DNA from: Escherichia Stx1-converting recombinant phage HUN/2013
Length of the DNA stretch: 61,137 nt
Reading direction: 5' to 3' (one strand)
Sequence record: KJ909655.1
Part shown: positions 6,001 through 21,000 of the stretch, piece by piece
Numbering within the stretch: position 1 is the stretch's first letter
How the letters are laid out: each line of letters opens with the position of its first letter
Program-made: the position numbers

Positions 6001-9000
6001 ACAGGATATCTTAAATGAAGAGTATAGCAACACTGGTTGTGTGTGCAATCTCCGGGATTGCCTGTGTAAATTTATCTGCACATGCAGCAGAAGGAGAGCA
6101 TACAATTTCTCTGGGGTATGCGCACTTTCAGTTTCCGGGACTGAAGGATTTTGTAAAGGATGCGACTGCTCATAACAGGGAGACTTTCAGTCATTTCGTC
6201 AACAGAAACTACTTTTCTTCATTGGGCGAATATACAGATGGTCGGGTCAGTGGATATGAAGGCAAGGATAAAAATCCACAGGGCATTAATATCAGGTATC
6301 GCTACGAGATAACGGATGATTTTGGCGTTATCACCTCTTTTACATGGACGCGTTCTCTCACTAACTCACAGACATTTATTGATGTGCAGTCAGCCGATCA
6401 TACCAGGAAGATTAAGAATCCGGCAGCTTCTGCCAGAACGGATATCAGGGCGAATTACTGGAGTCTGTTAGCGGGGCCTTCATGGCGGGTTAATCAGTAC
6501 ATGAGTTTATATGCGATGGCAGGGATGGGCGTTGCTAAAGTTAGCGCTGACCTGAAAATTAAGGACAATATTAACAGTAGTGGCGGATTTTCTGAAAGCA
6601 ACAGCACGAAAAAAACCTCCCTTGCGTGGGCTGCAGGTGCACAGTTTAACCTGAATGAGAGTGTTACACTGGATGTGGCTTACGAAGGTTCCGGCTCTGG
6701 CGACTGGCGCACGAGTGGCGTTACTGCTGGCATTGGCCTGAAATTCTGACCTGTATCCGGTAACCGTTTACTACCCGCTGTGATGGCGGGTTTTTTATTG
6801 CCCGTACAGGGCAAAAACCGTAAATTATGCGTGGGTGCCTTTCGGCTGATGGCTGGAGGGTGAACCTGAAGGCCTGATGTGGAAAGGCCCCGAGTCAACT
6901 TAACGTTAACCCGAGGCCCTAACACTTCGTACCTTAAGCAAGTAGAAGGTTAGCGCCTCTCTGTAAAAGGAGTCAAGCGCTATGTCGCAAAAATCGCTTA
7001 TCACCGTCACAATTTGCATGACGGTTATCTTCACCATCTGGATGTTGCACGGTTCACTGTGTGAGTTCCGGCTGAATTTGTGGGGAGCGGAGTTTGCGGC
7101 GTTCTTACAGTGTAAGCAGTAGGAAAACCGCGACGGGGACGAGAGTCCCCGTCAACTGGTTGCTGAGGTTCAGCCGATATGGCACCCGTTTCAGGTGAGA
7201 GAATGAACGATAAAATTCTCTGGTATATGCAGCGTGTTGTGAGAAATTCCCGCAACCCTGAATTTATGAATGAAGTTAAAGACGCCTGCCTTAAAAAGCA
7301 GGCGTTTTGTTTTGAGGCACCTGATGGCTTTTTGGTGCTGCGTTCTGTGCTCAGTGCTGATGGTATCCCTTATGTTCTGGTGTTGCTGGGCGTGTGTACG
7401 GGGAGTAACAGCGTTGAGCGTTACCTGCCGGAGGTGAAGACATTAACCCATCTGGCTGGCGGACGCTGGGCTGAGTTCCATACGGCAAGGCGGGGATTTA
7501 TCCGGCTGGGAAAACGACTGGGCTTTGAGCGAATGCCGGATGATGAGGATGGCTTCATGGTGTTCAGGATAGCGGTCTGACTGCTACAGTTTTCATCATT
7601 GTGTTTAAACCAACATTGTAATTCACATTCTGACCCTGCTCCGGCAGGGTTTTTTGTTATCCAGGGGGCCATTATGGGTGGAAGTAAAGGCGGTGGTGAT
7701 ACCAAAGTAAAACCAACAGCAGCGCAAATAGCACAGGAAGAAGTGGCCTGGAAAGGGTGGCAGGATTACAAAAATATCCTCCGCCCGGCTGAAGATAACT
7801 TCATGGAAAAGGTCGATGACCTGAACAGTGAGCAGCAGTACGACAATATTGCTGGCACCACAAATCTGGGGTATCAGAAACAGTTTGGCGAAGCACGGAA
7901 GGAGCTTGCGGGTAATCTTGCTCAGTCCGGCGTTGACCCATCCAGTGGTCGTTTTAATGCGGTAATGAATGCGAACCAGAGTGACCAGGTAACCGGGCAG
8001 ATTGACACAACCACACGGGGGCAGGTATCGCAGGCAGATAAGTATGTTGCCGGGCTACAGGATGTTGCTGCTCTCGGTTCTGGTCAGAAGGCGGATGCGT
8101 TACAGAGTTTTAACTCTCTGGCAGACAGCAGTCTGGCAAAAGCTAAATCGGATGCACAGGCGGCGTTTACGAAACAGCAGGGGCGAGCCTCTCTTGTTGG
8201 CGCTGGTCTGGGTGCGGCAGGTGCATATGCGATGCATAAGGCTGGCGGTAGCGGAGGAAGTGGCGGTGCTAAAACACCTGGCACCGGCGCTAATGCCATT
8301 CAGCATCAGGCTCAGAACTGGAGACTGTAATTATGGAGTATGGCAAATACGAAACTCTCGCAAGGGCTGGTTATTCAGGAGCAGACCGCCCACAGGGTGA
8401 CTGGCAGACGTCAGCAGCGCTGACACGCCAACAATACGACGACTGGCGAACCAGATATTTGCCCCGCGTGGCAAGGCTGGCTGACCTTGGGGAGAACAAC
8501 AGTCTGATGAATGCACAGCTTGCACGGGTGGGAGGCCTTGCCACTTCCAGTCTCCGTACAGCGCAGATGGCGCAGGATAACCAGATGGCGAGATACGGGG
8601 TAAACCGCCCGGATAATCCCGACAGTAATACGCTGGGGTTACGTAATGCCCTGGCAATTGCTGGCGCGAAAAATGGTATCCGTGAAGCCGAACAGGATCG
8701 CCAGATGAATATTCTGACGGGGGCTTCTGCACCGGCAAGACAGAAACTGAGTGTTGGCGGCCAACTGGTGGCAGCGTAAGGGGGCAATATGGGATACGGT
8801 TTACTGGATATTGCAAATCAGTCGCGGCGTGAGGCATTACAGGGAATAAGTGACGCAGACAGACGACGTGAAGAAATTGAGGCTGCGAACAAACAGATGG
8901 CGGCGCAACAGAAAGCGCAGAACAAGCAGAATATCGGTACGGGCATTGGTACGGGGGCGGCTATTGGCGCATCCGTTGGTGGTCCTGTTGGTGCTGTTGC

Positions 9001-18000: not shown

Positions 18001-21000
18001 ATGTTGTTGGTGGTGTGCTTGGTGCATTCAGCCCGATTGGCAGTGAGACGTCGGAAACACTGTCCGGGGCATTGCTGAAAAATGCAGCGCCGACCATTCT
18101 GCGTCCGTTTGCGAACCTTGCCATGAATGAAAACTTCATGGGGGCGCAGATTTACCAGGAGAACATGCCGTTTGGTACACCAAAACCTGACAGCCAGCTG
18201 GGAAGACGTTCAACGCCAGAAGCGTACAAGGCGTTTGCATCCTGGCTGAATGCGTTCTCAGGTGGCAGCCAGTACCGTCCCGGCGCGGTGGATATCACAC
18301 CGGAATCGCTGAAATTCTGGATTGACTATATCTCCGGAGGGACAGGGCGCTTCATTTCCAAAACCACGGATGCGGCGGTGAAATCGCTGAATGGTATTGA
18401 TATACCGGAACAGCAGGTGCCCTTCCTGGGGAAAATTTCGGGGGAGGTGATGCCGTATGCAGACCAGCAGAAGATGTACGACCGGATGACAGAGATTGCG
18501 CAGTATCACGCAGAGCTGAAGAGTCTGACCGGTGCAGAAAGAACGGCGTTCATTGACGAGAACAACGGAAAATTGTCGATGAACGGGCTTATGCAGGATA
18601 CCCGGAAGAGACTGAAGGATTTGCGTAAACAGCGTGATGCCATTTACGCCGACAGTACTCTCAGTCTGGCGCAACAGTCGGCGATGGTGAAATCGGTAGA
18701 GCGGGATATGAAAATTGCCGTGGATCGGTTTAACCGCGAGTACAACAAAAAAGTGGGAGTGGATTAACAGAAATGGCCCCGTACGGAAGTGCGGGGCTGA
18801 TTAAGAAATAAACACTCATTGACCTGTAATAACCGGAGCTATTAACATATAGTCAGAAGAGCATTTCATGTGATACAGAGAGCCGATTTATGTTTAATGA
18901 AGAAAAAGTTGCGCAAATGGCAGCGTATTTGCTGAAAAAGCATGGCGGATCTATGCGTTTCATTAAGCTGAAGCAGCAACGGTAATGGCGAATAGCATTT
19001 ATGAGCAAAATAATCTTGATATGTTATTAGGCGATCTGATGTAACCGGGATGATGTTCACCCCTTATCGCCGGGGAACAATACCGGCAATCAGAATTGCG
19101 GATGGAACTATTCAGGCCCACGATGATATCGATGAGGAGTTTTTTCAGCCAGTATTGGATGGCTTTCTTATATCCAAATATACGCCATTTGACATCCTCC
19201 ACGCCCTGAAGGACGGGGTTTTACAGCGCACCGGATAAGATTCGGTGTTTTGTTGAAAAATACTGTGATAACAAACAGAAAACCCGTCAGTAAGACGGGC
19301 TTAGCAAGCTGGGACGGTTACTTTAATAATTTCAGTGCCTTTACATCCACTTCAACACTGCTCAGGTCTTTATCAATTTCACCCTCAATTCTTACTTTGT
19401 CTTTCGGAGAAACATTCTGCCCGGCCCATATGCTGTCATCGATATCCGTGACAATTGTCCCGCTATTGTCACGAAACTCATAACGTTCATCACCCACTTT
19501 TTTAACGATGCTCCCTTCAAGGATAACCCATGCATCATCCTTCAGTTCTTTTGCCTGCGCTACTGTTGAACGCTCTGCTTCAGGCCCTTGGAAACCGCCC
19601 TGCTGTGCAAAAGCGCCAAAAGACACACCAGAAATAAGTGCTGCAATCAATACCTTTTTCATTCATAGTCCTCTTTCAGAGATGAACATTCAAACAGCAT
19701 TTTCAGTATGGTAAAGCGCGGGTGCGTTGAGGATGCCTGACACATCAGAGGTGGCGGGAGATTACTCCCCCGCTTGGTCTCTTACTTCTCAGATTCGTAG
19801 TCTACGAAGACAGCGACCTCCGTCTGACCGGTTCGGATTCGCACCTCGCAGAGGTCTTTCCTCGTTACCAGTGCCGTCACTATGACGGTTAAACAGATGA
19901 CGATCAGGGCGATTAACATCGCCTTTTGCTGCTTCATAGCCTGCTTCTCCTTGCCTTTCGGCACGTAAGAGGCTAACCTACATGTGTTCAGCATGGATTG
20001 AGCCTCAGATTAATGTTAAGCGTCTTGCCGGACGCGTAATGTTAACTGGGGCTTTTCTCTATCTGCCGTTGGTGTTCATGCCCGAGGCAGATAGCCTCAA
20101 GCACCCGCAGCAATTCTACTTAACTCTCCTTTTCCCGCAAACCGTTTTTATCTCCAGCGACAAATCGAATACACAACCAGCACCACCGCCATTACTGTTC
20201 CTACATTTGCGAATGCTTCAGGCCAGGTCATTGATTCACCTTCTGCTCAATATTTTTAAGGTCATTTTCCGCATACAGTATTGCAGTTCTTGCTGCCCGC
20301 AACCGTGCTTTGGTGTTCTTTTCTTCACGCTCGAGGCTGGCAACAGATTCTCGGAGCTGATCGTGTCTGTTATGAAGCTGTCTAATCTCTCTCACCACAG
20401 CCTCACCATCGTTCGCACACCGCAGAACATACTGAAAAGGGTCCACAACACATCCGCACTGCAAGCACAGGATAACGTGATCCTGTTCATGAACCTCAAT
20501 GGCCCGATGCTTACAGCTCTGTTGTGTGTAGTTTTTTCTGCCAGTTACTGTAATGTTCAGCAGCTTCTCTTCATCGCGCTTTGGCTGCACCAGTGTGATG
20601 ATATTATCGCCTTCATTTTCCATCAGTTCACCTCCTGCGGCGGTTCTGGTAGCGGCATCCAGTGTGACGGTTTCCACGACGCACCAGGAATTATCCACCC
20701 ATCATTAGCGTCAGGATGCCCCGGGATGTAAGTCGCCCACTTCATTCGCCAGTCACCTTTCCTGTCAAACTCCACGGCAACAAGAACGGCTGTTTTGGTA
20801 TCCGGCATTCGCTCACTACAACTTATCCAACCATCCGGAGTTACCGGAGAGTTGCCAGACAGCGCATTCTGCAACCGTTCCAGCTTAACGTATTCCTGAA
20901 CCCTGTTTCCGTCGCACGCCTGAAGCCATTGCTCAGCCTTTTGCGCATCAGTGTGAAAGGCACAAGTGCGACCGTCATCAAATTGCATTTCGTAGAGGTT

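Follow-up and report, generated by a model that had tools for sequence, protein, structure and literature searches.

What a phage does with a single gene that takes up about 14% of its genome is the question raised by Escherichia Stx1-converting recombinant phage HUN/2013 (sequence record KJ909655.1), in which a row of five genes ends in an open reading frame (ORF) of 2793 amino acids (aa). Stx-converting phages spread Shiga toxin (Stx) genes among E. coli, and their infection machinery is poorly understood compared with that of T7 or P22. The window analysed was the whole record of 61,137 nt; all coordinates given here are positions in it, and all genes of the five-gene module lie on the + strand. 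The initial annotation, made from the sequence before any database search, described a coupled operon whose giant product was a candidate polyvalent protein, packaged in the virion and injected to counter host defences. Here the module is read as encoding the internal virion (ejection or pilot) proteins of the 933W/Sp5-type short-tailed Stx phage, which we consider probable, and the giant protein is classed, by its predicted domains, with the phage-type polyvalent proteins (Iyer et al. 2017). The family, essentiality and virion association of this protein have already been published. The additions made here are modest: the first HExxH motif was placed in the CLCA_X family, a second zincin-like domain was defined, the MuF-C domain was relabelled, a conserved C-terminal module was delineated, and the products of all five genes were noted in a published phi24B virion proteome.

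Mutant phenotypes and virion content

Positions 7000-19500 showed 100% identity to Enterobacteria phage VT2-Sakai, which is prophage Sp5 of O157:H7 Sakai, as well as to the Morioka V526 phages Stx1 and Stx2-II and a large number of further Stx phages, and 185 phage records spanned at least 80% of this segment. Sp5 ORF75-80 (ECs1237-1242) are listed in Table S1 of Mondal et al. (2016) as 133, 218, 148, 83, 421 and 2793 aa; the sizes match exactly, and the module genes are therefore Sp5 ORF76-80 (ECs1238-1242). The five ORFs of the initial annotation were thus all found at their places on the + strand. They comprise a virion protein of 218 aa that aids infection (gene 1, 7674..8330; ORF76/ECs1238; phi24B gp51), a non-essential virion protein of 148 aa (gene 2, 8333..8779; ORF77/ECs1239; gp50), a small protein of 83 aa with a C-terminal glycine-zipper hydrophobic helix (gene 3, 8789..9040; ORF78/ECs1240), an essential virion protein of 421 aa (gene 4, 9051..10316; ORF79/ECs1241; gp48) and the giant polyvalent protein of 2793 aa, virion-packaged and essential for infectivity (10386..18767; ORF80/ECs1242; gp47). 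The tail fibre, nozzle and needle genes precede the giant gene and share its strand.

In the study of Mondal et al. (2016), Sp5 genes were deleted singly in K-12 MG1655 and the resulting phages were assayed on MG1655. Deletion of ORF79 or ORF80 gave no plaques and no lysogens, and both mutants were complementable; their heads were normal and contained DNase-resistant genomes at the wild-type level. Deletion of ORF76 strongly reduced infection and lysogenisation, and ORF77 and ORF78 were non-essential. The defect of the ORF79 and ORF80 mutants falls after DNA packaging: as in pilot proteins, both products are needed for infectivity and for neither head assembly nor packaging. Ejection proteins are usually recognised in this way, by size, synteny and a requirement for infectivity, rather than by sequence.

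The choice of host in these assays bears on the proposal that the giant protein is a pure anti-defence effector, comparable to P1 DarB, T4 IPI or Ocr and dispensable for DNA delivery. Such a role would suit its membership in the polyvalent class, which was read by Iyer et al. as early-phase counter-defence weaponry (PMC5512222), relatives of the giant protein are annotated as 'DarB-like antirestriction' proteins, and the giant protein itself matches phrog_10089 (E 1e-25). The protein was essential, however, to phage made in K-12 MG1655 and infecting K-12 MG1655, where host-specific modification already matches, and its core job is therefore more basic than restriction evasion. The 'DarB-like' PHROG match is limited to the LPD38 region (aa 2351-2681), the methyltransferase and helicase domains of DarB were absent in searches of Pfam, NCBIfam and PHROGs, and PADLOC defence models gave no meaningful match to the giant protein; a dispensable anti-defence effector is accordingly quite improbable. 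An injected, counter-defence function is at present proposed by analogy, and virion association is documented in orthologues only.

That documentation comes mainly from a phi24B preprint (bioRxiv, April 2026), in which gp47, the 2811-aa orthologue, was abundant in purified virions, absent from the symmetric cryo-electron microscopy (cryo-EM) map and from negative-stain images, and proposed to be a capsid-packaged ejection protein. The supplement of the preprint contains the products of all five module genes: gp47 with 10,962 peptide-spectrum matches (PSMs), second to the capsid protein with 17,998, gp48 with 1,634 (peaking in one gel band), gp51 with 523, gp50 with 129, and an 86-aa ORF with 13, the last dismissed in the preprint as a contaminating 'bacteriocin homologue'. 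Peptides of gp47 extended from aa 92 to 2414 and included both HExxH-containing peptides. The peptide sheet gives totals in place of counts for each gel band, and protein-level counts fell smoothly from the top of the gel; on these data proteolytic processing is no more than a possibility. From a crude comparison of spectral counts in the batch sample (gp47, 746 PSMs over 2811 aa; portal, 101 PSMs over 724 aa and 12 copies), an order of magnitude of ~20 gp47 copies in each virion would follow, a rough figure that was not relied on. Outside the Stx phages, a 4,515-aa 'DarB-like' protein of the Bcep22-like Burkholderia phage JC1 and the two proteins preceding it were found to be virion-associated by mass spectrometry, and the portal, capsid and head-closure proteins of JC1 are related to their 933W counterparts (Davis et al. 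2022). The initial claim of packaging is thus borne out for the orthologue, the second most-detected virion protein and yet invisible in the map, and the outcome that had been named as contrary to it, absence from virions with no effect of deletion, is contradicted by the ΔORF80 phenotype.

Several points weigh against an ejection module, and the first of them, the main one, is also the basis of a rival explanation. An anti-tail-fibre (ORF67) antibody failed to bind ΔORF79 and ΔORF80 particles, and Mondal et al. (2016) filed both genes under tail formation, so that the giant and 421-aa proteins would be structural or assembly factors of the tail and would not be ejected. The combination of packaged DNA, normal heads and no antibody binding was shared by nozzle and needle mutants, and the phi24B authors mention 'internal tail contents' lost upon ejection. 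In the complete model of the phi24B tail, however, which is made up of the portal, two adaptors, nozzle, needle and fibres, neither gp47 nor gp48 had any density although both are abundant, and a protein of ~308 kDa present in many copies could not go unseen in so short a tail. The tail-fibre immuno-EM result was moreover a negative one reported as 'data not shown', and enzymatic domains in a polyvalent architecture would be unexpected in an assembly factor. A tail role is for these reasons judged unlikely.

The remaining points concern the ejection reading itself. Ejection into a cell is a proposal for the giant protein and for every homologue alike, and we infer the intracapsid location from the lack of density in the map. 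The T7 and P22 ejection proteins and the N4 virion RNA polymerase (vRNAP) showed no similarity to it in sequence or fold, and no segment of the giant protein exceeded 1.4 on the Kyte-Doolittle scale (maximum 1.38), which leaves it with no strongly hydrophobic transmembrane (TM) segment. Ejection-protein mutants of the P22 type are normally tailed. The virion proteomics come from a preprint, from an orthologue that is 96-98% identical and from a preparation stored for six months, and the proteolytic and ribonuclease (RNase) activities of the giant protein are predictions only.

With these points taken into account, an ejection module still appears the probable reading, and the following course of events would be in keeping with it. 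The module proteins would be packed in the head with the DNA and, once the needle is released, would exit by way of the portal and tail channel, either preceding the DNA or along with it. The C-terminal module of the giant protein would, together with the 421-aa protein and the small glycine-zipper and Ala/Gly-rich proteins, serve passage through the envelope, in parallel to T7 gp14-16 and P22 gp7/20/16, and the lineage-specific central domains of the giant protein would be delivered as cargo. Its two zincins might cut the giant protein into working pieces, cleave host proteins, or both, and the PBECR domain might act on RNA.

The analogy extends to gene order and composition. As with T7 gp14/gp15/gp16 and P22 gp7/gp20/gp16, the genes follow those for tail and needle, the products are packaged in the virion and serve infectivity rather than packaging, and several proteins of graded size, small Ala/Gly-rich ones included, are involved. 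The giant homologue in Ralstonia phage GP4 likewise carries an N-terminal lytic transglycosylase, as in the N-terminal part of T7 gp16. Unlike gp16, the largest Stx member is two to four times bigger and has zincin and RNase-like domains; ejection and channel formation are in the Stx case proposed by analogy, and the Stx mutant particles reportedly fail to bind tail-fibre antibody. The N4 vRNAP (gp50, 3500 aa), which is injected at infection, is a protein of similar kind, giant and packaged in the T=9 head of a podovirus, and was classed as polyvalent, with a metallopeptidase (MPTase) domain, by Iyer et al. (PMC5512222). Homology to it was considered and rejected: alignment of the C-terminal module profile with N4 gp50 by hhalign gave a probability of 0.1, and no RNA polymerase family was matched. 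The resemblance to N4 gp50 is one of analogy only.

Domains of the giant protein

The mechanical ORF list and RefSeq (NP_050570.1; product name 'LPD5 domain-containing protein') start the giant gene at ATG 10347 (2806 aa), within or overlapping a terminator-like hairpin. Numbering from ATG 10386 was adopted here because GGAG stands 7 nt upstream of it, it lies 3' of the hairpin, and it yields the 2,793 aa used by Mondal et al.; it is the more plausible start, and RefSeq has probably placed the start 13 codons too far upstream. An exhaustive representative search with aa 1182-1840 was used to collect relatives of the central region; it returned 6,979 clusters at 50% identity, of which 2,362 had E <= 1e-30. 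Counts among representatives refer to the best 150 of these 6,979, mostly proteins of 1.2-5.8 thousand residues. The search for full-length homologues returned only near-identical E. coli clusters. Searches of the Protein Data Bank (PDB) by sequence with the giant, 421-aa and 218-aa proteins and with profiles of the C-terminal module and of the second zincin gave no significant match.

Iyer et al. (2017, J Bacteriol; PMC5512222) gave the name polyvalent to giant proteins of many domains that occur in phages and conjugative elements, for which delivery together with the DNA was proposed and which are built around a zincin-like MPTase and 40 'LPD' domains, of which LPD38 is phage-only. Pfam recognised four domains on the giant protein at E 1e-17 to 8e-48, the LPD domains far over their gathering scores: LPD5 (PF18799; aa 1051-1200, 13536..13985, + strand; E 6.5e-45), LPD1 (aa 1361-1440; E 1e-23), MuF-C (aa 1750-1839, 15633..15902, + strand; E 1.3e-17) and LPD38 (aa 2476-2681, 17811-18428, + strand; E 7.6e-48). 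All four were defined from polyvalent proteins, and the name first given to the giant protein is in this respect upheld by the domain search. The single 2793-aa ORF unites unrelated predicted activities (LPD5, CLCA_X, a second zincin-like domain, PBECR/MuF-C and LPD38), has as its hub a zincin-like MPTase with HExxH and a downstream Glu (or Asp), and carries signature LPD domains in a gene located among the virion late genes. With one His…HExxH..D zincin, one HExxxH, PBECR/MuF-C and LPD5/LPD1/LPD38, and with its gene last among the virion late genes, it shows no essential difference from the proteins described by Iyer et al. Beyond what was reported in 2017 are its essentiality in an isogenic host and the recognition of LPD38 as the core of a constant C-terminal module of ~950 aa.

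Both HExxH motifs of the initial annotation are present, HEWFH at aa 1284-1288 (14235-14249) and HEIIHH at aa 1551-1556 (15036-15053), where 0.036 would be expected by chance from the composition of the protein. The first lies in a CLCA_X-type zincin metallopeptidase domain (aa 1182-1440, 13929..14705, + strand). NCBIfam CLCA_X (NF041907) matched aa 1182-1437 at E 2.1e-43, over positions 3-245 of the 250 in the profile; at 148.6 bits the score falls short of the 260-bit cut-off for whole proteins, because the domain is divergent and forms part of a larger protein. Lenart et al. (2013, PLoS One) described CLCA_X as a family of zincin-like proteins in which phages and plasmids are enriched; its consensus, HExxHxxxD, corresponds to HEWFHSLD (14235-14258) in the giant protein. 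Members often lie within very long proteins, the Stx copy being one domain of a 2793-aa protein, and the activity of the family is predicted from sequence. Judged by their extents, the Pfam LPD1 domain is the C-terminal part of this peptidase-like domain. LPD5 and CLCA_X occurred together in 136/144 of the representatives, and H1263, H1284, E1285, H1288, D1291 and E1375 were kept in 142-145 of 145. A His ending strand 2 and an Asp three residues past HExxH characterise the 'phage-type' MPTase clade of Iyer et al. (PMC5512222), into which the first zincin domain, as a predicted member, fits.

The motif HEIIHH sits in a separate zincin-like domain of ~200 aa (aa 1470-1680, 14793..15425, + strand) with the family motif HExxxH…E. 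This domain was present in 61 of the representatives, and H1551, E1552, H1555, E1607 and E1614 were invariant in an alignment of 17 sequences; most relatives, including the Vibrio phage homologue, have HExxxHH, and the Stx lineage is one residue shorter. It has no Pfam model, and Pfam and PDB sequence searches with it returned no significant match. In a relaxed Pfam scan by segment, neither MPTase-PolyVal nor any other peptidase model was significant for either HExxH region (Peptidase_M76 was faint for the second motif, E 0.1), and the CLCA_X profile gave only a marginal lethal-factor match in the PDB (E 0.061). An AlphaFold2 model of aa 1040-1850 had a mean predicted local distance difference test score (pLDDT) of 80.8 and a predicted template modelling score (pTM) of 0.49. 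Both HExxH regions were modelled as an N-terminal helix and three strands, then the helix with HExxH and, further on, a helix with a conserved Glu, at pLDDT of about 85-97 in the second domain.

Between these domains and the C-terminal module lies MuF-C, which keeps its His and Ser. The phi24B preprint describes MuF-C as a peptidoglycan-degrading metallopeptidase. According to Pfam and Iyer et al. (2017; PMC5512222) it is PBECR, a predicted RNase-fold domain (barnase-EndoU-colicin-RelE-like); on this assignment it is a predicted RNase-like domain and not a metallopeptidase, and the zincin-like domains are those upstream, at aa 1182-1440 and 1470-1680. The mechanism of the preprint could be transferred to them, as peptidoglycan peptidases that open the wall for an ejection conduit. 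Wall-degrading enzymes do accompany related modules, as an N-terminal SLT lytic transglycosylase in the giant protein of GP4 (together with LPD3) and as a gene with SLT and NlpC/P60 immediately upstream of the giant gene in Bacillus phage Pony, and the Stx phage module is without a recognisable muramidase, a role that another domain might take. Against this stand the relabelled MuF-C, on which the proposal was founded, and the kinship of the first zincin to the phage-type polyvalent MPTases; we hold wall-opening by the zincins to be rather improbable.

Mondal et al. (2016) had reported a match to COG1483, a predicted AAA+ ATPase, from which the giant protein would be an ATPase powering a step of tail formation. 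The absence of a Walker A motif noted initially was confirmed, also with a relaxed pattern, and no AAA family was matched in Pfam, relaxed Pfam or NCBIfam searches, which makes an AAA+ ATPase hardly credible. For the targets of the predicted enzymes, the initial remark that the sequence does not reveal function remains true.

Upstream of LPD5 the protein is of another character. The N-terminal region (aa 1-460, 10386..11765, + strand) is rich in Ala and Gly and has two moderately hydrophobic segments, aa 181-199 and aa 407-425; it was common to 19 of the representatives, and phrog_37568 matched aa 170-439. The glycine zipper claimed for the giant protein amounts here to a weak match to Gly-zipper_YMGG at aa 406-433 (E 0.033, sub-threshold), and a clearer one was found in the 83-aa protein. 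An acidic, Pro/Gln-rich low-complexity linker, delimited by its composition profile, follows at ~aa 461-1050 (11766..13535, + strand); no family matched it in the relaxed Pfam scan, and peptides from it do occur in virions.

The C-terminal module and its relatives

The conserved C-terminal module (aa 1843-2793, ~950 aa; 15912..18764, + strand) has LPD38 at its core and is proposed as a packaging and ejection chassis. In structural prediction it is confidently modelled and helical, without a solved structural relative. When aa 1843-2793 were used in tblastn, giant proteins encoded at the end of the virion gene block were found in Vibrio, Ralstonia, Burkholderia and Bacillus phages, with module identities of 41% in Vibrio phages (giant protein of 3,066 aa), 32% in Bacillus phage Dartukuta (4,203 aa), ~27% in Burkholderia DC1 and Ralstonia GP4 (3,224 aa in GP4) and 22% in Bacillus phages Pony and Pascal (1,679 aa). 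Nothing but the module is common to the Stx protein and the giant virion proteins of these related podophages, and the match to the module ended at most 30 residues from the C-terminus in 23/27 module-carrying representatives. A profile search for distant modules added proteins of 1.15-1.65 thousand residues; some of them, on contigs of about 56-61 kb, fuse the module to ADP-ribosyltransferase domains. One apparently stand-alone, 'minimal' module (P0289, 900 aa) was set aside, its gene starting 89 nt from one end of the contig and being probably truncated.

Invariant within the module were RHAPERN (aa 1974-1980), YVPLKG and NFNRKGE. At ~aa 2447-2476, each of the 52 aligned homologues has a conserved Ala/Gly/Leu helix that is free of charge and has an acidic DDD/DED motif after it; with a median Kyte-Doolittle value of 1.31 this helix is only moderately hydrophobic, and a TM helix is not claimed.

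The Bcep22-like and GP4 'DarB-like' proteins share with the Stx protein the genome position, the homologous C-terminal module (27-28% over about 800 aa), preceding virion proteins of 500 aa and smaller, and a related portal and capsid with T=9, and the giant proteins of JC1 and Bcep22 are virion-associated by mass spectrometry. The proteins differ in their variable parts: SLT, LPD3 and methylase/helicase-like regions, the source of the DarB label, in Bcep22-like phages and GP4, and LPD5-CLCA_X, the second zincin and PBECR in the Stx protein, which has no similarity to P1 DarB itself.

Among the Stx phage records, the central region (13929-15905) varied more than the C-terminal module (15912-18764): identity of the former went down to about 91%, with 37 records in the 90-95% band, and the latter was at least 96.8% identical among the records listed. 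Variation of this kind would fit variable cargo on a constant chassis.

A wider version of this idea is that the C-terminal LPD38 module is an unrecognised protein-delivery chassis of about-60-kb T=9 podophages, from Proteobacteria to Firmicutes, with swappable effector cassettes on its N-terminal side and self-release by zincins. We regard it as possible but doubtful. The C-terminal module would direct packaging into the head and passage through tail and envelope; the cassettes would be zincins and RNase in Stx phages, SLT in GP4, and ADP-ribosyltransferases or methylase/helicase elsewhere; and the zincins would free the cassettes by self-cleavage inside the host. In Stx phages, zincin and RNase would then act on E. 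coli proteins or RNA in the first minutes of infection or lysogenisation. Were this so, the system would be a phage counterpart of polymorphic toxin systems, the injected enzymes would be candidates for factors that determine host range and the earliest stages of lysogenic conversion, and thousands of phages could be using the module as a common means of bringing enzymes into cells; the relatives of the central region alone form the 6,979 clusters given above.

Upstream genes and neighbourhood

Every module gene has a colinear homologue in Vibrio phage D79. E-values for the D79 and GP4 homologues of the 133-, 218-, 148- and 83-aa proteins come from blastp against a small database. The 421-aa protein corresponded to a 467-aa protein encoded just before the giant gene of D79 (E 2e-12), the 218-aa protein to a 201-aa protein of D79 (E 3.7e-15) and a 277-aa 'virion-associated' protein of GP4 (E 1e-4), and the 148-aa protein to a 117-aa protein of D79 (E 5e-5). 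The 218-aa protein also matched phrog_8003, 'virion structural protein' (E 1e-8). Otherwise, no Pfam match of note was found for the five upstream proteins (133, 218, 148, 83 and 421 aa), and none in the PDB for the two that were searched there (421 and 218 aa). The 421-aa orthologue gp48 is labelled 'Transcription factor?' in the phi24B proteome file; nothing in the sequence of the 421-aa protein pointed to DNA binding.

The 83-aa product is named 'bacteriocin' in RefSeq on the basis of a sub-threshold glycine-zipper similarity (Gly-zipper_YMGG, E 9e-6, under the Pfam cut-off), and it has a hydrophobic segment at aa 56-83. A 77-aa protein of D79 has the same glycine-zipper C-terminus (E 2e-8). 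Because it holds a conserved place in the virion module and its orthologue was detected, with the 13 PSMs mentioned above, in phi24B virions, the evidence suggests a small membrane-active virion protein.

Outside the five genes, between lom and the module, lies the 133-aa ORF (Sp5 ORF75/ECs1237; 7179..7580, + strand), with a single hydrophobic segment at aa 50-76. It resembles a colinear 131-aa homologue directly upstream of the D79 module (E 1.6e-4), and its product is not among the listed phi24B virion proteins. It may be an accessory gene of the module, for example a non-packaged chaperone; its membership is uncertain.

The five genes are separated, in order, by 2, 9, 10 and 69 nt. The operon had been called tight, which is true of the first four genes, closely packed, and does not extend to the giant gene, before which the 69-nt gap contains a terminator-like hairpin, GCCCGGCCATTGTGCCGGGT followed by seven T (10349..10368, + strand). 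A second hairpin with a T-run (7632..7651, + strand) stands 22 nt 5' of the first module gene, and a third at 6773-6791, after lom; all three, found by consensus scan on the + strand, are strong. In lambdoid phages the Q-antiterminated late transcript presumably reads through such terminator-like sites. The three coding-strand hairpins may partition expression within that transcript, or they may mark the joints at which the lom/bor morons were inserted.

The gene lom (6015..6749; Pfam Ail_Lom, E 1.5e-32) belongs, with bor-like and membrane-associated morons, to a block (5023-6749) that separates the needle gene (3740..5008) from the ejection module. In Vibrio phage D79 the small genes of the module lie directly 3' of the tail fibre gene, and the bor/lom morons of the Stx phages look like an insertion into a conserved block of virion genes. 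Directly downstream of the giant gene, on the - strand, 19318-19994 hold a gene for a YgiW/YdeI OB-fold stress protein and a MokW/gef (hok-family) host-killing gene, which mark the start of what had been termed the cargo region. In the module of Ralstonia phage GP4 (3514-5519), genes for an acyl-CoA N-acyltransferase and a PAPS reductase-like protein are inserted between genes for virion-associated proteins, and are further morons embedded in the same virion block.

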